The notes beneath the pieces were generated by a model. It had not been told where the DNA came from and made no database searches. It was given only the letters and a program-made list of their open reading frames with translations. Made by a program: the position numbers and the translations under genes. DNA of 64,000 bases from the NCBI RefSeq assembly GCF_058153355.1, contig NZ_CM177019.1. One strand, given 5' to 3'. Below are positions 29,471-56,112 of this stretch, in pieces; positions within the stretch are counted from its first letter, which is position 1, and every line of letters starts with the position of its first letter.

Positions 29471-29502
29471 ACATTCATTGAGAAAACTGATGCTACTGTG
29501 TC

Positions 29503-29594
29503 AACGATCCGTTATCAGTGCAGGAAAATGCCTGTTAGCGTAAAAGCAAAACACAAATCTATCCATGCAAGCATTCACCGCCGGTTTACTGGCG
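29503..29594 (+). ncRNA. mgrR: Candidate PhoP-regulated sRNA MgrR (about 90-98 nt), ends approximate
   Basis: PhoP-box-like repeat and -10 upstream; strong intrinsic terminator (7-bp GC stem plus T9) at 29568-29594; no ORF; known neighbourhood of mgtS. Confidence 0.5.
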
Positions 29595-29600
29595 GTTTTT

Positions 29601-29642
29601 TTTTCGCCGTCATAAAAATCAGGCCCCTTGTACACAACTGTA
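29601..29642 (-). terminator. Intrinsic terminator downstream of mgtS
   Basis: 10-bp stem ggccccttgt/acaaggggcc followed on the minus strand by TGATTTTTAT. Confidence 0.5.
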
Positions 29643-29669
29643 ACAAGGGGCCGGTTAGGTGAGGGATTA

Positions 29670-29765
29670 TCTCCGTTCATTAGTCATCCCATTTGTGGCT
29701 GAAATACGCGGCCAGAAACCCAGAAAATAAAATTATTCCCAGTACGGCCATAAAAACATTCATAT
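29670..29765 (-). CDS. mgtS: Small membrane protein MgtS (YneM), 31 aa
   Basis: Manual translation MLGNMNVFMAVLGIILFSGFLAAYFSHKWDD*. Confidence 0.7.
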
Positions 29766-44803: not shown

Positions 44804-45562
44804 TTACTCCGTACGCCGGGCAACAATAAACAGACGCGGAAATGCCAGCAGTATCTGTCCGTTCTCTTGCAGTGGATACTGCTCTTCCAGCATCTGATGG
44901 TAGCGCGTAAGAAAATGCTGCTGTTCGCTCTCGGTCAGATCCTGTAACCACGGACGTAATCCAGTGGCGGTCACCCAGTCAATAATCGCCTGGTGCGACG
45001 GCATCTGGTGATAGTAAGTGGTTCGCCAGATATCGACCTCGCATCCGGCTTCACTCAAAATATCGTAGTAAGCATGAACGCCAGCCAGCGGCTCACGCCC
45101 GCGATCCGGGTAGTTTTGTTCCCAGGCGACTTCGCGCATGAGCACATGGGTAGGCTCCAGCCAGTTATCCGGCATTTGTACCGCCAGCACGCCCTGCGGA
45201 CTGAGTAACGAAACCAGATGAGGGAACAGTTCGTAATGGTCGGGCAGCCATTGCAGCGAGGCATTAGCAAAAATCAGATCGAGTGCCTGTTCCGGTTGCC
45301 AGTTGCGGATGTCTGCTTCCACGAACTGGCAGTCTGGCAAAGCACTGCGCGCTTCAGCAATCATCGCCGGAGACGAGTCGATGCCTGTTATCCTGGCCGC
45401 AGGCCAACGTTGATGCAGCAGGGCGGTGCTGTTACCTGGGCCACAGCCAAGATCGGCAACGTATTCGATATTCTCCAGCGGCACTCTGGCAAGCAGCTCC
45501 ACCGCCGGACGCGATCGTTCAGCGGCAAAGTGCAGATATAAAGAGGGGTTCCAGTCAGACAT
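44804..45562 (-). CDS. tam: Trans-aconitate 2-methyltransferase Tam
   Basis: SAM-binding motif [17 protein letters not shown] ribosome-binding site upstream. Confidence 0.9.
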
Positions 45563-45650
45563 ATTTTTACTCCCGTCAGCGCGTTACCCCTAGTGTAGAT
45601 AAAACTGTTGACATCCTCCACGCCCTGAAGGACGTGGATCCCTGCTACGT

Positions 45651-46859
45651 TCAGGCTGTCGCCTGAATCATTTCGGTGGGTTCCTGCTTCAACGGGCGGC
45701 CTGACTGCACCATCCCTCCACAGGCAAGAACGGCGTGCCCCGCCGCTAAAATGTTACGAGCGCCGTTCACATCGGCGTTCGCTGTGTATCCACATACCTG
45801 GCATCTGAATTTACTTTGTGACAGACGATTTTCTTTCGCTGTATGACCACAGCACGCGCAACGCTGGCTTGTGTACGCTGGCGGAACAGCAAGCACCTGA
45901 CCACCACGCCAGAGCTGCTTGTACTCAAGCTGGCGGCGCATTTCATACCAGCCCTGATCCAGTATCGAACGGTTTAAACCTGATTTTGCCCGGACATTGC
46001 GCCCCGGCGGGCTGACCGTACCCGCTGCTGACTTTGACATGTTACTGACCTTCAAATCCTCAATGACTATCATTGCGTGGTTTTTGCTGACGGTCGTTGT
46101 GACTTTATGAAGGTAGTCCCTGCGGATATTTGCGATACGGGAATGCAGTCGCTGTATTTTGCGTTTCTGCTTCTGCCAGTTATTGCTGAATTTGACCTTG
46201 CGGCTTAACTGTCGCTGAAGTCTCGCCAGCGTCTTCTGGTTTTTCTGAAAACTGTTTACAGGCTCAAAGACTGTGCCATCTGACAGCATGGCGAGTTTAG
46301 CCACGCCAGCATCCAGCCCGATCATTGATGCTGAAGGGTGAACCGGAGTGGATACTTCACTTTCTGTCTGAATACTGATGTACCACTTACCGCAGGACTG
46401 GCTGACAGTGACATTTTTCACAACCCCCGTGACCTGACGGCTGTTCCGGTAGCGCATCCAGCCCAGTTTCGGCAGAAAAATACGGCTGTTTTCCTGATCG
46501 AGCTTAACGCCCTGCGGGTAGCGGAATGCATCATTCTGTCCCCGCGTTTTGAATCGGGGAAAAGCAGCCCGCTTCTGGAAGAAGTTTTTGTAAGCCCGCT
46601 CAAGGTCTTTCAGTGACTGTTGCAATGGCTGTGAGGGCGAATCTTTAAGCCATTGCGTTTCAGTGGCGTTTTTCCACTCAACCAGCCAGGAAGCCATTTT
46701 CCCGTAAGGGATGTATTTATTACCGGCCTCATGATTCTCATTCTGACGTGCCAGAGCACGATTGAAAACGAAACGACATGCGCCTGCGAAGCGCCTCATT
46801 TCACGCTCCTGTTGACCACCGGGTCTTAACTGGAATTTAAATGCCTGTAGTCGTTTCAC
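45651..46859 (-). CDS. tnpB: TnpB (OrfB) RNA-guided endonuclease of the IS200/IS605 family, apparently intact
   Basis: 402 aa; C-terminal zinc finger CACCGH...CQVCG and RuvC-III motif [10 protein letters not shown]. Confidence 0.85.
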
Positions 46860-46866
46860 AGGTCAA

Positions 46867-47340
46867 ATGATACTTTGGTCTGTGAAAAAAGAAACCGATA
46901 TCCGGCGTGGAAGGCATTGTGTTTTCCTGATGCATGTTCACCTGGTCTTTGTCCCAAATACCGACGCCAGATTTTTGACCATGACGCGACAGAAAAACTA
47001 CGCACTTACTTTTCAAATGTATGTGCTGATTTTGAAGCTGAACTGGTTGAAATGGATGGCGAACCAGATCACGTCCATTTGTTAATTAACTATCCTCCCA
47101 AACTGGCGATATCCAGTCTGGTAAACAGCCTCAAAGGCGTATCGGGTAGGTTACTGCGACGAGATCGACCAGATATTGCAGTCAGGTATTACTACAAAGG
47201 CGTTTTGTGGAGTCCTGGCTATTTTGCCAGTAGCTGCGGAGGTGCGCCAATATCCGTCATCCGCCAATACATTGAACAACAGCAAACACCTGGTCAGGTG
47301 GAAAACCGCGCCTTATATCCCCGCCCTGAAGGACGGGGTT
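46867..47340 (+). pseudogene. tnpA: IS200-type Y1 (HuH) transposase TnpA, apparently frameshifted near its N-terminus
   Basis: First beta-strand motif MHVHLVFVP lies in the ATG frame (46867) but PKYRRQIF, the HuH motif DHVHLL and the catalytic region YIEQQ continue in the +2 frame (46875, TTG). Confidence 0.55.
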
Positions 47341-47365
47341 TTACGGCGCACCGGATAAATTCGCC

Positions 47366-47656
47366 TCACGGCATCAATCCATTGAACAGACGTTTTTTAC
47401 GCGGCCCGGTCATTAAAGATTCCAGTTTTGCGACACAGGTTTTGTAGTGGGGCGTGGTTTTATGGAACGCCACTGCGTCTTCATCTTTATAGGCTTCATA
47501 GATATAAAAGCGCGAATTCACTTCCGGGTCCTGTAAGACATCGAAGCGCAAATTGCCTTCTTCCTGTACCGAGCCCAGGTGGTTCTGGCGAAAAACTTCG
47601 ATAAACTCGTCAACCTTGTCTTCATGAACGTTAATTTCAACCAGTGTGACGTGCAT
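47366..47656 (-). CDS. lsrG: AI-2 degrading protein LsrG
   Basis: 96-aa ORF; last gene of the lsr operon. Confidence 0.9.
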
Positions 47657-47679
47657 AATTCTTCTCCTTAAATCCGCAG

Positions 47680-48555
47680 TTACTGTTTTTCACTCAGATA
47701 GAGTTCATATGCCCGATCAGCCGTTTCGTTATGGTGTACCACCGCCTGTACGGCTTTCATCATCGCCACCGGATGGTCAGACTGGAAAATATTACGCCCC
47801 ATATCCACACCAGAAGCGCCCTGATCGATAGCCTGCCAGCACATTTCCAGCGCCTCGCGCTCCGGTAATTTTTTACCGCCAGCAATAACAATGGGTACCG
47901 GACATCCGGCAACAATCCGTTCAAAACCTTTATCGACATAATAAGTTTTGATAATCTGCGCCCCCATTTCAGCGGCGATTCGGGTAGCCAGCGAGAAATA
48001 ACGTTGGTCGCGCACCATATCTTTGCCCACGCCAGTGACTGCCATGGTCGGCATTCCTACTTTCATTCCGGCATCGACCAGCTGAATAATATTTTTAATC
48101 GACTGATGTTCATATTCACTGCCGATATAAACCTGCGCTGCCACCGCGCAACTGTTCAGGCGCACGGCGTCATCCATCGATAACGCCACGGCTTCATTAC
48201 TTAATTCCGCCAGAATAGAGTTCGCACCAGACGCCCGCAGTACTACCGGCTTATTGGTCGCCGGGGGGACTACGCTGCGCAAAATGCCGCGCGTACACAT
48301 TAATACATCGGCATGTTCAAACAGCGGGGCGATATTTATATCAATGCGTTCAAGTCCGGTAGTCGGCCCCTGAAAATAACCATGGTCAAAGGCCAGCATC
48401 ACGGTTTTACCCGTTTTCGGATTAAATATCCGTGATAAGCGTGACTGCATTCCCCAATCCAGCGCACCGCAACCTTTCAGGGTAAAAGGGATATTTTGTT
48501 GCGGTTGATCGGTGCGAAAATCTTTACCATCTTTAATATCGTCTAAATCTGCCAT
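47680..48555 (-). CDS. lsrF: Aldolase-family thiolase LsrF
   Basis: 291-aa ORF. Confidence 0.9.
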
Positions 48556-48581
48556 AACGTACTCCGGTTAAGTAATGCACA

Positions 48582-49604
48582 TCAGAAATCGTATTTGCCG
48601 ATATTCTCTTTGTTGAATATCACGCGCTCCGGTAACAGTACGATGCCATTACCATCCGCTTCGTAGTCATAGCCCTGAACGCTGTTTGGCGAGACTTCAA
48701 CCTGACCTACGCCCTGAATATTCAGCTTGTCGCCCGTTTTCATTGATCCTTTTTTCAATAATGCATCCGCGACATAAACTGAAATTTTGCCTTGCTGAAC
48801 CACATCCCACAGGCCAAATTCTTTCACCGTGCCGCGCTCTACATACGGACGCATCACGTTTGGCGTACTGAATCCGACAATCGCAACTTTGTCATTTTTC
48901 AGGTTTTCTGCGGCTTGTGCGGCAGCGGGCAGGGCGTTGGCGTCCGGGGCGATAATGGCGTCGAGATCGCTATAGGCTTTTAATATTCCTTCTGCGGTTT
49001 GTAACGATTTAGTGGCATCGTTATAGCCAAACTGCGTAGTGACAATTTCCCAGCCTGGATGGTCTTTGGCGATTTTCGCTTTCGCCTCTTTCACCCACTG
49101 GTTTTGGTCCATAACGGTGGGGCTTGAGTAGAAAAACGCGACTTTGGCTTTGTCTTTATTCACCTGACGCGCCGCCATATCCACCAACATACCTCCCAAC
49201 TGGGCGGGCGTTCCCTGATTAATGTAGTAAGAGCGGCACTCCGGTTTGGTATCAGAGTCCCAGGTCAGCACTCTCACGCCACGTTGCATGGCGCGTTTCA
49301 GTGCCGGACACAAGCCATCAGGCGAAACCGCAGAAACGATAATGGCGTTATACCCCTGATTGACGAAGTTATTAATCAACTGTACCTGACCAGAAACACT
49401 GGGTTCTGTCGGCCCGTCGTAGGTCACATCAACGCCCAGCTCTTTACCCGCTTGTTGTGCGCCGTTGCCACCGCTGGTAAAAAATCCCACGCCAACCAGT
49501 TTGGGAATAAAAGCAATACGCTCTGCGGCCTGCACATTCATAGAGATTGCGGCAATGCCAAGAGCGCTAAGTAAGGCGATTTTCTTAAAGCGATGAAGTG
49601 TCAT
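48582..49604 (-). CDS. lsrB: AI-2 periplasmic binding protein LsrB
   Basis: 340 aa with signal peptide. Confidence 0.9.
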
Positions 49605-49615
49605 GAAGATATCCT

Positions 49616-50608
49616 TTATGGCAATGGGTTATTGGCCCGACGCGCCAGCCACTCTTTAATTTGCTGGCGATGCAGGCTAACGGAACGACCTACGACAACG
49701 ACGATAAGCAGCGCACCGGAAAGGGCGCTGGACACCTGATTTGGCACTCCTGCCATTTGCAAACCTTGTTGCAAATATCCCACTAGTAAAACCGCAATGG
49801 CGGTGCCGATAATGGAACCGGAACCACCATAAATATTGGCACCGCCAAGCACCACGGCGGTGATGGCGGGCATCAGAAACGACGCACCGAGATCGGAACG
49901 TGCTGAACCAAAATACGATACCAGCAGCACAGCGGCGACCGCAGACGCCAGCCCCGTCATGGCATAGAGCGCACATAAGGTGCGGTTAACTTTAATCGCG
50001 CTATAAAGCGCCACGCGCGGGCTTTGCCCAATCAAAAACACATTACGTCCGGCATGGGTTTTATGCAGCCAGAGCCAGAAAACGAGGAGACATATCAGAA
50101 AGATAATCAGCGGAACGGGGAGTCCCAGCACATCCAGGTTAGCGAAATCTGTAAACGCCATCGGGAATCCACCAATACCTTCGTACCCCGTCGCTCCGGC
50201 CATCCCGGAAAGCAGCAGAGCGCTTCCGGCAAACAGATACAGCGTGCCAAGCGTAATCACCAGCGGGTTAACTTTGGTATAGATAATTAATCCGGCGTTA
50301 ATCAGCCCGCACAATGCGCCGAGCAGAAAGGTCAGAAGAATCGCCAGCGGCATCGGCACGCCGCTTTGAAACAGTACGCCTAATGCAATGGCGCACAAGC
50401 CGATGGTCGAGCCAAACGAAATATCGATCCCGCCACTGACAATCACCATCGTCAGCGGTAGGGCGACAATGCCAATGCAGATAAAGTCACTGGTGCTGAA
50501 CAGCAACATATTGAGATCTAACATCCGCGGGTTAATTGCACCAAATGCGACAATCTCAATCACGAGCAGTGCGGCAAGAGCTAGTTCCCAACCGTAGCGA
50601 ATACGCAT
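49616..50608 (-). CDS. lsrD: AI-2 ABC transporter permease LsrD
   Basis: 330-aa polytopic ORF. Confidence 0.9.
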
Positions 50609-51636
50609 TACGCGACCTCCCGTTTTTTACCTGACGAAGCGGGTTTAACGGATGGCGGTGGCGTCATAAAGCGGGCATATTTTTGCCGCCGTAGATTACG
50701 TTCCAGCGCACAACGCAGGCGTCCATCAAACACCAGCACCGCCAGCAGAACTAGGCCCGCGATAAAATCATTCCACCATGCCGGAATGCGCAACAGCACC
50801 AGTACACTATCGATCTGCGTCAGGAACCATGCGCCGAGTACCGCACCGATGATCGCACCGGAACCGCCGAGCAAACTAATACCGCCCAGCACGCAGGCTG
50901 CAATCGCTTTCATCTCCAGCCCGGTACCGGTCTGGTTGGGAATAAAACCGATCTGCGAAGCAAACACAATCCCCGCCAGTGCCGCCATGCAGCCGTTCAA
51001 CGAAAATGCCACAATCCTAATGGCTTCCGTACGAACGCCCAGTTGACGAGCGCCCTGCAAATTATCGCCCGTGGCATAAAAACTGCGTCCAAACGCCGTC
51101 TTCGCCAGCAGCCAGGCCATAAATGCCACCAGAATTATCGTCAACCAACCAATTGCTGAAACGCCAAACAGCAGCGGGGCGGAGAGTTGTTTCAGTTCGG
51201 CGGGTAACCCCTCAATCCATTTACCGCCAGTCCACAGCAACATGATGCCCCTGTACAATCCTAATGTACCGAGCGTGGCAACAATGGCAGGGATCTTTAG
51301 CCACGCGACCAGGACACCGTTGAAAAATCCCGCGAGCAAACCAAGCAGTAAAGTCGCGACACAAGCAACAGGTAGTGAATACCCCGCGTTCAGTAACATT
51401 CCCAACAGCACTGCGCACATTCCGGTAATCGAACCTACCGAAACATCGATATTGCGCGTGAGCATCACCAGCGTCGCGCCCATTGCCAGCAGGATCAGGA
51501 TTTGCGCGCTGCTATAAACCATGGTCAGCGTTTGCATACTTAAATACTGGCGGTCGAGAAAACCGGGTAATACAAACAGCAACACCACCGCCAGCAGTGC
51601 CGTGATTTCACGGTTGTTCTGGATAAACTTCAGCAT
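50608..51636 (-). CDS. lsrC: AI-2 ABC transporter permease LsrC
   Basis: 342-aa polytopic ORF. Confidence 0.9.
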
Positions 51637-53165
51637 GATGCCTCCTGACGCTGACTATCGCCGAAGGCAACGCGCATAATGGTCTCGACATTAATATCGC
51701 GTCCGGTCAGTGCAGAGTGGGCAATTTCGCCCTGATGCATCACATATACGCGATCTGCCATCAGTTCGATCTCTTCCAGATCAGAGGAGATAAGCAGCAC
51801 AGCTACATTTTGTGCGGCGATGCTGCGCAACAGCTGGTAGATATCATTACGGGCCGAGACATCCACGCCGCGCGTCGGCTCATCGACAATCAAAACTTGC
51901 GGCGAAGCTTCCAGACATTTGGCAATCAGGATTTTTTGCTGGTTGCCGCCGGATAAGGTCCGCGCAGCTTGTTCCGGTTGGTTAAATTTAATATTCAGAG
52001 CCCGACGATAACGTTCCAGTGTGGCGTTATCTTTCGCGGTTTTCGCCCAGAATCCACGAAGGTTGTGGGTCAGGGCGCAAACGTTCCAGGCCAGCGAAGC
52101 ATCGAGATTCAGTCCGGATGACTGGCGATCTTCCGGCAGATAAACCAGACCGCGCAGTAAACGTTCTCCAGTGTATAATCTATTGATCTCTTTACCATTC
52201 AGCATAATGCGTCCGCCACGCAAAGTACGCAGACCATAGAGCGTCTCGGCCAGTTCTGTGCGTCCGGCCCCCACCAGCCCAGCCAGACCCAGAATTTCTC
52301 CGGCATTAAGCGTCAAGCTGACATTCATAAAACCTTCGCCGGTCAGGTTTTCCAGTGTCAGCACCGGCGTTCCGGCGGCATGTTGTGGTCGGTTGCCAGG
52401 TAACTCCAGCCATAATTTTTGGCTGGCAGAGAGCGATTTTTCCCGTAGCGCTGGCGTGATGGCCTGAATAATGTCGTCGGTAGACAGTTCGCTGGTTTTG
52501 CCGCTTAAGGCGATGGTTCCGTCGCGCATCACGCTAATTCGATCGGCAATCTGGCGAATTTCCGGCAGCTTATGCGAGATAAAAACAATACCCACGCCAG
52601 TAGCAAGCAACTCTTGCAAGCGACTAAACAAACGTTCGGTTTCGGCGGGGGTAAGCGAGGCGGTAGGTTCATCGAGGATCAGAATCCGCGAGTCGCGCAT
52701 CAGCCCGCGGAGGATTTCCACCATTTGGCGATCGGCGACATCCAGCGATCCTGCCAGACTATGCAGATCAAACTGGCAGCCCAGCGCCGCCAGCAAGTTC
52801 TTCAGTTTCTGCATGGAGAGCTGTTTTTTTGCTAGCCCAAACAGAATGTTTTCTTTTATCGACAGGCTTGGGAAAAGCAGCGGTTCCTGGGGAACGAGAT
52901 AAATACCCAACTGATGAGCATGAACTGGCGTTAATCTGGTGTAGTTGTTGCCTCCAATCTCCAGCGTACCGCTATCAGCAGGGGTAATACCGGCAATGAT
53001 CTTCATTAACGTCGATTTACCGGCACCATTGCCGCCAAGCAGGGCGTGGACTTCCCCCTGATGCAACGTAAAATCGATGCCTTTCAGGACATTAACCCCT
53101 GAATACTGTTTATAAACCGAGCGGGCGCAAAGTAGCGGTAACGCGCGGATATCACTCGTTAGCAT
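51630..53165 (-). CDS. lsrA: AI-2 ABC transporter ATPase LsrA (two ABC domains)
   Basis: Walker [10 protein letters not shown]; start trimmed to [12 protein letters not shown]. Confidence 0.85.
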
Positions 53166-53414
53166 GTTTCCCCCGTTCAGTTTTGCAGGTGAGTTTTGAA
53201 CAAATGTATTTCTGCTTTCAATTTGTTCATAAACCTTAGGTGGACATTGCACATATTTCCGACGAATAGATCACAATTTATGCTATTTTGATTTTCACGG
53301 TTGCGTTTGTTCATGCTCGTAGAGTCAAACTGTGGTTGCTATCACAGATATAAATGCGCAAGAACTGAACAATTGCATTAAAGATTTAAATATGTTCAAA
53401 GTGAAGAATGAATT
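53166..53414. promoter_or_regulatory. Divergent lsrA/lsrR promoter-operator region
   Basis: AT-rich intergenic region between divergent lsr operons; individual sites not resolved by eye. Confidence 0.5.
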
Positions 53415-54368
53415 ATGACAATCAACGATTCGGCAATTTCAGAACAGGGAATGTGTGAAGAAGAACAGGTCGCGCGGATCGCGTGGTTTTACTATCACGA
53501 CGGGCTGACCCAGAGCGAGATCAGCGAGCGTCTCGGGCTGACTCGCTTGAAAGTGTCGCGATTACTGGAAAAAGGGCATCAGTCCGGCATTATTCGCGTG
53601 CAGATTAATTCTCGCTTTGAAGGCTGTCTGGAATATGAAACTCAATTACGTTGTCAGTTTTCGCTGCAACATGTCCGGGTGATCCCTGGGCTTGCGGATG
53701 CTGATGTCGGCGGGCGACTAGGGATAGGCGCGGCGCATATGTTGATGAGTTTACTTCAACCACAACAGATGCTGGCGATTGGTTTTGGCGAGGCAACCAT
53801 GAATACGCTGCAACGCTTAAGTGGTTTTATTTCGTCGCAGCAAATTCGCCTGGTCACGCTCTCCGGTGGCGTCGGTTCTTATATGACGGGTATCGGGCAG
53901 CTTAATGCGGCGTGCAGTGTGAATATTATTCCGGCTCCGCTGCGGGCATCCTCCGCTGACATTGCCCATACGCTAAAAAATGAAAATTGCGTCAAAGATG
54001 TTCTGTTAGCCGCACAAGCTGCGGATGTGGCGATTGTCGGCATTGGGGCCGTGAGTCAACAAGACGACGCGACGATCATTCGCTCCGGTTACATCAGTCA
54101 GGGCGAACAGTTAATGATTGGTCGAAAAGGGGCGGTTGGCGACATCTTAGGCTACTTTTTTGATGCAAAAGGTGACGTTGTCACGGATATCAAAATACAT
54201 AACGAACTGATTGGCTTACCTTTAAGCGCGCTGAAGACCATTCCCGTCCGGGTTGGCGTGGCAGGGGGAGAAAATAAAGCCGAAGCCATTGCCGCTGCAA
54301 TTAAAGGCGGCTATATCAACGCACTGGTTACCGATCAGGACACAGCAGCGGCGATTTTACGTAGTTAA
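53415..54368 (+). CDS. lsrR: SorC-family repressor LsrR
   Basis: 317-aa ORF. Confidence 0.9.
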
Positions 54369-54446
54369 ATTTGCATGACCTTATTACCGGGAATGATGGA
54401 GAACGTATAGAGGAACAGACAGAACGCATAAGCCGAGGATAATCTA

Positions 54447-56039
54447 ATGGCTCGACTCTTTACCCCTTCAGAATCAAAGTACTACCTGATGGCGCTGGAT
54501 GCAGGCACCGGAAGTATTCGGGCTGTGATATTCGACCTGGAAGGCAATCAAATAGCAGTGGGACAGGCGGAGTGGCGGCATCTGGCAGTACCGGACGTTC
54601 CTGGTTCTATGGAATTTGATCTCAACAAAAACTGGCAACTGGCGTGTGAGTGTATGCGCCAAGCGCTGCACAACGCCGGCATAGCCCCGGAGTATATCGC
54701 TGCCGTTTCGGCATGTTCGATGCGCGAAGGCATTGTTTTATATAACAATGAAGGAACACCGATCTGGGCCTGCGCCAATGTGGATGCCAGAGCGGCGCGC
54801 GAAGTTAGCGAACTTAAAGAACTGCACAACAATACCTTTGAAAACGAAGTTTATCGCGCCACCGGACAAACGCTGGCTTTAAGCGCTATTCCCAGATTAC
54901 TTTGGCTGGCGCACCATCGTTCTGATATCTACCGACAGGCGTCGACCATCACCATGATCAGCGACTGGCTGGCCTATATGCTCAGCGGTGAACTTGCGGT
55001 GGATCCCTCTAACGCTGGCACCACGGGACTTCTTGATCTAACCACCCGTGACTGGAAACCTGCATTGCTGGATATGGCCGGACTGCGGGCCGATATTCTT
55101 TCTCCTGTCAAAGAAACCGGCACATTGCTGGGCGTGGTAAGTTCACAAGCGGCGGAACTCTGCGGTCTGAAGGCGGGCACTCCGGTGGTCGTTGGAGGAG
55201 GCGACGTGCAACTTGGTTGCCTGGGGTTAGGCGTTGTCCGTCCGGCACAAACCGCTGTTCTTGGCGGTACATTCTGGCAGCAAGTTGTAAACTTAGCCGC
55301 GCCGGTGACAGACCCAGAAATGAACGTGCGCGTTAATCCTCATGTTATTCCTGGCATGGTACAAGCTGAATCTATAAGCTTTTTTACCGGACTCACCATG
55401 CGCTGGTTCCGCGATGCTTTCTGTGCCGAAGAAAAACTGATTGCCGAACGTTTAGGCATCGACACCTATACGTTGCTTGAAGAGATGGCAAGTCGTGTGC
55501 CGCCTGGGTCGTGGGGCGTAATGCCGATATTCTCCGACAGAATGCGCTTTAAAACCTGGTATCACGCTGCGCCTTCATTTATTAATTTGTCTATTGATCC
55601 GGATAAATGTAACAAAGCGACATTGTTCCGTGCGCTGGAAGAAAATGCGGCGATTGTATCAGCGTGTAACTTGCAGCAAATTGCTGATTTTTCGAATATT
55701 CATCCCACATCGTTGGTCTTTGCCGGCGGAGGTTCAAAAGGGAAATTATGGAGTCAAATTCTCGCTGATGTCTCGGGATTACCCGTCAATATTCCGGTGG
55801 TCAAAGAAGCCACCGCATTAGGATGTGCCATTGCAGCTGGCGTCGGTGCCGGAATTTTTTCATCAATGGCAGAAACCGGAGAACGCCTGGTTCGCTGGGA
55901 ACGGACGCACACACCAGACCCGGAAAAGCATGAACTTTATCAGGATTCACGCGATAAGTGGCAGGCTGTTTATCAGGATCAGCTGGGGCTGGTTGATCAT
56001 GGACTGACGACGTCGTTATGGAAAGCGCCTGGGTTATAG
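54447..56039 (+). CDS. lsrK: AI-2 kinase LsrK (FGGY family)
   Basis: 530-aa ORF. Confidence 0.9.
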
Positions 56040-56047
56040 TTTCATTG

Positions 56048-56083
56048 ACAGCCACATCATGATGACCGTGGCTGTTAGTTTTT
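56048..56083 (+). terminator. Intrinsic terminator after lsrK
   Basis: 8-bp stem acagccac/gtggctgt followed by T5. Confidence 0.5.
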
Positions 56084-56112
56084 GAGTATTCTTATTTCCC
56101 TTCTTTTAGAGC

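Follow-up and report, generated by a model that had tools for sequence, protein, structure and literature searches.

Organisation of the tam–lsrG region

In the window (the whole 64,000-nucleotide stretch of DNA analysed here), tam and lsrG are about 1.8 kb apart, as read from the open reading frame list and the raw sequence. The DNA that separates them carries an insertion sequence of the IS200/IS605 family with an intact tnpB gene and a tnpA pseudogene on opposite strands (Table 1). On the minus strand, which is the functional “top” strand of the element, the order of its parts is LE, tnpA (antisense), tnpB and RE. The tam–lsrG spacer measures 56 bp, and the two genes are adjacent in both empty-site E. 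coli genomes that were read (L003 and L078). An element is found at exactly this position in 30 of 5,426 E. coli genomes, including that of strain UTME-7, in keeping with the initial annotation, which described the two genes as adjacent in K-12.

Table 1. Features of the IS609-like element and its surroundings (positions in the window).
Feature	Position	Strand	Basis or remarks
tam	44804–45562	−	ORF list, raw sequence
Predicted guide segment, CAGUUUUAUCUACACU	45592–45607	−	Flanking DNA past RE; length of 16 nt assumed from ISDra2
IS609-like IS200/IS605-family insertion sequence, 1,747 bp	45608–47354	−	Ends from the empty site of L003 and from loss of similarity among 10 other copies
Omega RNA scaffold	45608–45754	−	Takes in RE and the final ~100 nt of tnpB; ends in ...GGAGGAUGUCAA; 5′ limit approximate
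RE subterminal hairpin, CCACGTCC-TTCA-GGGCGTGG	45618–45637	−	Lies 10 nt inside the right end; doubles as the final stem of the omega RNA
tnpB (insQ-type RNA-guided endonuclease), 402 aa, intact ORF	45651–46859	−	Pfam, NCBIfam, alignment with ISDra2
tnpA pseudogene (Y1 HUH transposase)	46867–47297	+	One A deleted between 46953 and 46954
LE subterminal hairpin, CCCCGTCC-TTCA-GGGCGGGG	47319–47338	−	16 nt inside the left end
Target / transposon-adjacent motif (TAM), TTTAT	47355–47359	−	Flanking DNA directly 5′ of LE; also in the empty site
lsrG	47366–47656	−	ORF list, raw sequence

The ends of the element were fixed by comparing the tam–lsrG junction between genomes. The empty site of L003 reads ...AAAACTG/ATAAATTCG... 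(in a longer form, ...TAGATAAAACTG/ATAAATTCGCC...), while the occupied site in the window reads ...AAAACTG-TTGACATCC...(element)...GCGCACCGG-ATAAATTCGCC. The element therefore spans positions 45608 to 47354, and no part of the target is duplicated; the scarless tam–lsrG joint that lacks the element is GAATTTAT/CAGTTTTATC. In ten further copies at five other sites, similarity begins and ends at the identical bases. An element of roughly 1.8 kb parting tam and lsrG had been annotated initially, which holds, but its ends had been set at 45590 and 47365 and are corrected here. The right end on the minus strand is ...GGAGGATGTCAA, which finishes in TCAA. Since TTTAT occurs in the empty site too, it lies outside the element. 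At the six distinct insertion sites compared, the 5′ flank is TTTAT in five and CTTAT in one.

The near-identical subterminal hairpins that had been noticed at both ends are each 20 nt long, lie in the same orientation, and differ at two positions that compensate each other. Their pattern is matched twice in the window, where chance alone would give 0.01 matches. As single-stranded DNA, both hairpins fold better on the minus strand, where the LE hairpin is the more stable for having a T.G pair in place of an A/C mismatch. The element thus has what is expected of the IS200/IS605 family: imperfect subterminal hairpins that point the same way at the two ends, no terminal inverted repeats, and an insertion point directly 3′ of a short conserved motif, with the target left unduplicated. 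For GC skew, the window-wide and local signs disagree; taken as positive on the plus strand, it would put the top strand on the template of leading-strand synthesis, contrary to the usual preference.

The succession of target motif, LE hairpin, RE hairpin and TCAA end is an architecture of the IS608 type. As in IS608 of Helicobacter pylori, which serves as the mechanistic model for TnpA of the IS200/IS605 family, the subterminal hairpins are formed on one strand, insertion occurs 3′ of a short motif without duplication, and the right end finishes in TCAA 10 nt past the hairpin. The two elements differ in their target (TTTAT here, TTAC in IS608) and in the spacing between target and LE hairpin (16 nt here, 19 nt in IS608). 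The genes tnpA and tnpB are divergent here, as in IS605, whereas they are co-directional in IS608.

Identity and prevalence of the element

By its sequence, the element is a copy of IS609, a member of the IS605 group of the IS200/IS605 family. It is 97.7% identical (41 differences in 1,748 columns) to the copy in E. coli strain 33F4 (L004), the TnpA of which (WP_000604912.1) is named “IS200/IS605-like element IS609 family transposase” in RefSeq; the threshold of at least 95% DNA identity for IS609 is thus exceeded, as measured against L004 and by way of the RefSeq name of its TnpA. Assignment to the IS200/IS605 family, as proposed in the initial annotation, is borne out by both proteins, which score above the NCBIfam cut-offs (TnpA with its missing base restored; see below), and by the ends, the lack of duplication and the TTTAT target.

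IS609 is an element already known, common and already annotated. Using megablast, IS609-like DNA was found in 5,061 of 5,426 complete E. coli genomes (93%). The median genome has it at two places, identity is mostly 95–99%, and the places number about 11,500 in all. This prevalence agrees with a survey of TnpB-containing elements, in which they were present in more than 90% of E. coli genomes at about two copies each (PMC9956272). In RefSeq, the copies are labelled “RNA-guided endonuclease InsQ/TnpB family protein” and “tnpA: IS200/IS605 family transposase”, and most of them keep a full-length InsQ/TnpB.

The E. coli copies of IS609, among them those of K-12 (insQ, next to ydcO) and 33F4, are 97.7–98.6% identical to the window copy over 1,748 bp and share with it the divergent layout of tnpA and tnpB, the ends, and the TTTAT target. 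The tnpA gene of the K-12 copy is likewise a pseudogene, but through a TGA codon, where the window copy has a 1-nt deletion. The window copy is further set apart by its insertion site between tam and lsrG, which it has in common with 30 RefSeq genomes, and by at least nine private SNPs. The tam–lsrG site and the tnpA deletion were not found together in any of the 5,426 E. coli genomes. The importance of the find beyond annotation is slight: the tam–lsrG spacer is a polymorphic insertion site, and its occupant is best labelled IS609, with tnpA marked as a pseudogene, tnpB/insQ as intact, and the omega RNA added.

Frameshift and decay of tnpA

The tnpA gene lies on the plus strand, divergent from tnpB, and its reading frame is split. 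One frame encodes MHVHLVFVP (MILWSVKKETDIRRGRHCVFLMHVHLVFVP), and the next encodes KYRRQIF...DHVHLLI...RQYIEQQ (IRQYIEQQQTPG), so that the HUH motif (HVH) and the catalytic tyrosine (in RQYIEQQ) are still encoded 3′ of the frameshift. A 1-nt indel had been proposed as the cause. Alignment with six other E. coli copies, including the one at the same site in UTME-7, located a single missing A, by which GTCACCAAAT became GTCCCAAAT and the codons GTC ACC AAA TAC CGA (V T K Y R) became GTC CCA AAT ACC GAC. The true start of tnpA is likely the GTG at 46882, and the deletion falls at about codon 30; the product has 72 aa, of which 29 are native residues. Once the base is put back, the translated protein is recognised by Pfam Y1_Tnp (E = 5e-42) and scores 148.3 bits against NCBIfam NF033573 (cut-off 55). 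The restored form is thus a Y1 HUH TnpA, and the gene as found is a pseudogene of that family.

Homologues encode HVHLVFV(T/A)KYRR in a single frame, both in L004 and at more than 20 loci in other genera (Serratia, Yersinia, Klebsiella, Morganella, Xenorhabdus, Pantoea, Photorhabdus and others). The two-frame layout is absent from the six other E. coli copies and from all of the more than 20 homologues of other genera, and the split is therefore a lesion and not a trait of the family. A second lesion is the loss of the stop codon, with CAG at positions 47295–47297. Most E. coli copies are likewise affected, while a TAG or TAA stop follows QQQTP(G/S) in L004 and 17 relatives. The repaired ORF would extend through LE into the flank, as far as position 47447. 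No other internal stop is present in the window tnpA. Other lesions among the E. coli copies are an in-frame TGA (K-12 and others) and Y135S, which affects the catalytic tyrosine, in L006.

Among 11 copies, tnpA shows 25 nonsynonymous and three synonymous changes (dN/dS about 2.5), against 43 and 33 in tnpB (dN/dS about 0.38). In this lineage, therefore, tnpA is in decay and tnpB under constraint. As far as can be read from its sequence, the window copy is unable to move itself, its tnpA being dead. The initial annotation had gone further and suggested that it may be immobile, which holds for self-movement but is an overstatement otherwise: both ends are intact, and for this reason a TnpA supplied in trans from elsewhere in the genome, of which the window covers 64 kb, could mobilise the copy, which is best described as non-autonomous.

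TnpB and its omega RNA

The TnpB protein, annotated initially as intact with a zinc finger and a RuvC motif, is fully in line with that description. It contains the Pfam domains PF12323 (HTH_OrfB_IS605), PF01385 (OrfB_IS605) and PF07282 (TNB zinc ribbon), and scores 386.9 bits against NCBIfam NF040570 (cut-off 100). Residues D183, E267 and D363 align with the RuvC positions GVDVG, TEHL and DRDEN of ISDra2 TnpB, and the zinc-binding cysteines C334, C337, C353 and C356 form two CxxC pairs. None of the three private substitutions of the window TnpB (K105T, T191M and Q284P) falls at a catalytic or zinc position, though they may still bear on its activity. The change C336Y in the TnpB proteins of K-12 and UTME-7 was considered as the loss of a zinc ligand and rejected, the ligands being C334 and C337. 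Domestication of TnpB as a nuclease-dead regulator was also rejected, given that the triad of catalytic residues is complete and neither transposon end is damaged.

A search of the window against Rfam gave no match in the element at the gathering threshold. Three families matched below it: HgcC (RF00062; 31.4 vs 50 bits, E = 1.4e-4, over the full length of the model), RAGATH-18 (RF03064; 28.1 vs 44.9 bits) and sot0042 (RF02656; 20.5 vs 88 bits). All three matches lie on the minus strand at the 3′ end of tnpB and RE, and that to HgcC takes in the terminal hairpin and the GGAGGAUGUCAA-like tail. Membership of the omega RNA in any of these families was rejected, as all of the scores are below the gathering threshold. 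Because Rfam yielded only such sub-threshold matches, a separate model was built from other genera.

The region around the stop codon was aligned for 66 related tnpB loci from species-representative genomes. In all full-length relatives, conservation continues for 43 nt beyond the tnpB stop and then ends abruptly after GGAGGATGTCAA; in 27 of the relatives, similarity ends exactly at position 45608, the right end of the element. RNAalifold, applied to 20 sequences, predicted 47 pairs in eight helices, of which 10 pairs have compensatory changes. Counted over the alignment, 97.8% of cells are paired, a proportion that falls to 40–49% in slid registers, and none of 500 shuffles reached the observed covariation. 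A covariance model made from 16 non-Escherichia sequences and run on the 64-kb window gave one strong match, from 45775 to 45608 on the minus strand (189.7 bits, E = 9e-48), at the 3′ end of tnpB, where a search for an omega RNA had been proposed in the initial annotation. All 44 pairs of the model are standard pairs in the window copy. Further matches are weak (best E = 0.067) and fall on the LE hairpin, which resembles the portion of the model that describes the terminal hairpin. The RNA is thus structured and overlaps both the tnpB 3′ end and RE, and it is predicted to run into the flank. On this evidence, tnpB and the omega RNA both look intact.

Predicted guide sequence and proposed mode of action

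TTTAT followed by the predicted guide (CAGTTTTATCTACACT, minus strand, from 45607 to 45592) is an exact match to the empty-site joint of L003. The empty joint of L078 has one mismatch to it, at guide position 15 (distal). The predicted guide matches the empty allele that is found in most E. coli.

The arrangement has close parallels in two known systems. The TAM of ISDra2, TTGAT, differs from the TTTAT found here. In ISDra2, as predicted for the window copy, the RNA covers RE together with the 3′ end of tnpB, and its guide comes from the flank. The D-E-D and zinc-finger positions are shared with ISDra2 TnpB (PDB 8EXA, 8BF8 and 8H1J), to which identity is modest (E = 1e-55 over 372 aligned residues); the window TnpB also contains 15 extra residues (approximately 279–293) that follow the catalytic Glu. 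The TTTAT TAM is shared with the ISGst elements of Geobacillus stearothermophilus (TnpB2), in which one motif is read by both TnpA and TnpB, and cleavage of the scarless donor joint by TnpB retains the element (Meers et al., bioRxiv 10.1101/2023.03.14.532601). Many ISGst copies are likewise non-autonomous (bioRxiv 10.1101/2023.03.14.532601). The ISGst elements belong to another host and are distant in sequence, and the donor-joint match of the window copy is an in silico one.

We consider it very probable that the locus holds an IS609 copy with a dead tnpA, intact ends, tnpB and omega RNA, and the arrangement of a TnpB homing system. IS609 would have entered the tam–lsrG spacer by “peel and paste” transposition of a single strand, landing 3′ of a TTTAT. 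Its tnpA is dead through the one-A deletion and has lost its stop codon as well. A TnpA acting in trans could still excise or transpose the copy. TnpB, if expressed, would bind the omega RNA read from the tnpB 3′ end through RE into the flank, and the complex would cut DNA in which TTTAT is followed by the guide sequence, that is, the scarless empty tam–lsrG joint. The cut site would then regain the element by recombining with an occupied copy (homing or retention). The nuclease activity, the length of the guide and homing are predicted here by analogy with work on ISDra2 and on the Geobacillus elements, for which a TTTAT TAM and a model of retention by TnpB and TnpA are reported (bioRxiv 10.1101/2023.03.14.532601). 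A search of the literature on the activity of IS609 TnpB gave one paper in which the protein was purified, and its text, as far as consulted, makes no mention of cis-cleavage.

Alternative readings and spread of the deletion allele

The 36-mer that spans the tnpA deletion recurs unchanged in 213 complete genomes, at 301 places in total and at up to three in any one genome. The loci include yfeD–gltX and yajI, and RefSeq flags tnpA as frameshifted there. All four E. coli copies with the allele that were read also bear an in-frame TGA in tnpA. The deletion is absent from all 30 E. coli copies at the tam–lsrG site, and a chimeric probe was matched nowhere over 80% or more of its length.

Among assembly errors, indels of one base are the most frequent, and the absence of the deletion from the same-site genomes could suggest that the missing A is an error of sequencing or assembly and that tnpA is really in frame. 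The deleted A is, however, outside any homopolymer (TCACC), and the identical 36-mer recurs in 213 independently assembled genomes, where it is annotated as a frameshift; error was thus rejected as the main explanation, and we regard it as highly improbable. A real deletion might instead be bypassed in translation. It creates the heptamer C_CCA_AAT (of the form X_XXY_YYZ) at positions 46953–46959, in the zero frame of the upstream ORF (site sequences GTCCCAAATACC and TTTGTCCCAAATACCGAC; comparison sequence TTTGTCACCAAATACC). A programmed −1 slip there would restore the native frame exactly and yield a low level of full-length TnpA (..VFVPN-YRRQIF..), leaving the copy weakly autonomous. Programmed −1 frameshifting is used in the IS1 and IS3 families, and a bypass of this kind would give IS609 a similar translational throttle on transposition. 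It could also explain how one allele, by no means rare, came to lie at several loci in up to three copies per genome, and the window tnpA, having no other internal stop, would allow it. Against this reading, no stimulatory structure is predicted by RNA folding downstream of the heptamer (MFE −3.1 kcal/mol, z +1.2), no Shine-Dalgarno-like sequence is visible upstream, and A-site AAU slips poorly in E. coli. Moreover, the four E. coli copies read with the allele also carry the TGA, tnpA shows no purifying selection, the repaired ORF lacks a stop codon, and no homologue is in two frames. We know of no IS200/IS605 TnpA under −1 frameshift control, and think a bypass extremely improbable.

The whole element might also be an inert fossil, with tnpB open only because it has not yet decayed, and with TnpB and the omega RNA functionless here. 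The varied decay of tnpA across E. coli described above is in agreement with this, and some tnpB genes are damaged as well (S386* in L010; a frameshift and C353F in L011). A scan of positions 45400–47500 for sigma-70 promoters and terminators gave no more matches than shuffled sequences, and none usefully placed for tnpB or the omega RNA. The TnpB of H. pylori IS608 was inactive in a published interference assay (bioRxiv 10.1101/2023.03.14.532601), so that, by analogy, an intact TnpB sequence would be no guarantee of activity. This reading is nevertheless unlikely in our view: among the same 11 copies, dN/dS is far lower in tnpB than in tnpA, the catalytic residues and zinc ligands are retained, every pair of the omega RNA model is standard in the window copy, and InsQ/TnpB is full length in most RefSeq copies. 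The reading of a non-autonomous IS609 with an intact TnpB system is therefore preferred. It makes the copy a natural example of the asymmetry usual in the family, in which the transposase gene decays while the RNA-guided nuclease and its RNA are constrained.

A point of some interest is the route by which one tnpA deletion allele reached several loci. When the 11 copies were put to the four-gamete test, incompatibility was seen in 43% of the informative site pairs, and the deletion itself was incompatible with 26 of 44 sites. The most likely route is gene conversion from copy to copy; trans-mobilisation of dead copies or recurrence of the deletion are alternatives. Among the genomes compared, L078 has the closest flank haplotype to the window (99.6% identity in tam), yet its site is empty, whereas the flank of UTME-7 is 96.5% identical and its site is occupied. 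Occupancy of the tam–lsrG site therefore does not track the flanks.

Distribution of the deletion allele and occupancy of the tam-lsrG site

Across 213 E. coli genomes, the 1-nt tnpA deletion allele (46953/46954) occupies 301 places, spread over different loci and different SNP backgrounds (copies L008-L011 among them). None of the 213 E. coli genomes carrying the allele has it at the tam-lsrG site. The IS609 copies are strongly mosaic, and 43% of site pairs among them failed the four-gamete test. Occupancy of the tam-lsrG site is not tied to flank haplotype. The site is empty in the E. coli genome with the closest flanks (L078, NZ_CP074749.1; tam 99.6%), and is occupied in L001 (NZ_CP169029.1), yet tam identity there is only 96.5%. 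Precise excision, independent insertion and recombination are all possible causes of this mismatch.

Because only 13 of 5,426 E. coli genomes matched positions 47366-64000 at a cover of at least 80%, with the matches split into 7-9 pieces, this region past lsrG is a mosaic, variable neighbourhood. It contains the lsr operon, hipA, an ECSE_1600-family autotransporter and a NEL-type E3 ubiquitin ligase domain protein. Elsewhere in the window, STnc560 (RF01407), an Hfq-binding sRNA family with a gathering score of 55, is matched over its full length at 277.5 bits.

Features of the IS609 copy and its surroundings in the window
Feature	Position	Strand	Sequence
STnc560 (RF01407)	29472-29686	plus	
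RE hairpin	45618-45637		
tnpB start	46859	minus	GTG
tnpA annotated start	46867	plus	ATG
tnpA putative start	46882		GTG
tnpA stop position	47295-47297		CAG
LE hairpin	47319-47338		

Starts and stop of tnpA

The tnpB start and the annotated tnpA start are spaced by 7 nt, so that the promoter of each gene necessarily lies within the other. In many relatives the annotated ATG reads ATT, which suggests that the true tnpA start is a Met/Val codon six codons further in. The tnpA stop codon is replaced by CAG in the window copy and in comparison loci L001, L002 and L005-L012, this being the majority state among E. coli IS609 copies; the stop is kept in reference IS609 and 17 Enterobacterales relatives. 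As a result of its loss, the tnpA frame extends past the LE hairpin into flanking DNA, in the window copy to 47447. PGAP labels such stop-less E. coli copies as "missing C-terminus."

Hairpins, omega RNA and strand orientation

The RE and LE hairpins differ by two mutually compensating changes (A..T versus C..G), and non-compensatory variation occurs within E. coli at 45630 and 45635 of the RE hairpin. In L033-L039, a subgroup of relatives from Photorhabdus and Klebsiella pneumoniae with TnpA identity of only ~50%, the terminal omega RNA/RE hairpin is longer and of other sequence (GGGGATCCCCCTCTTGAGTCACGAAGTGCGAAAGTGGGG), although the GGAGGATGTCAA end remains unchanged.

Over the whole window (1-64000) the plus strand has a positive cumulative GC skew, but the sign is negative between 44 and 52 kb. 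Read literally, the window-wide skew would place the IS top (minus) strand on the leading-strand template, although the local sign disagrees. This orientation would be opposite to the preference reported for IS608 and ISDra2.
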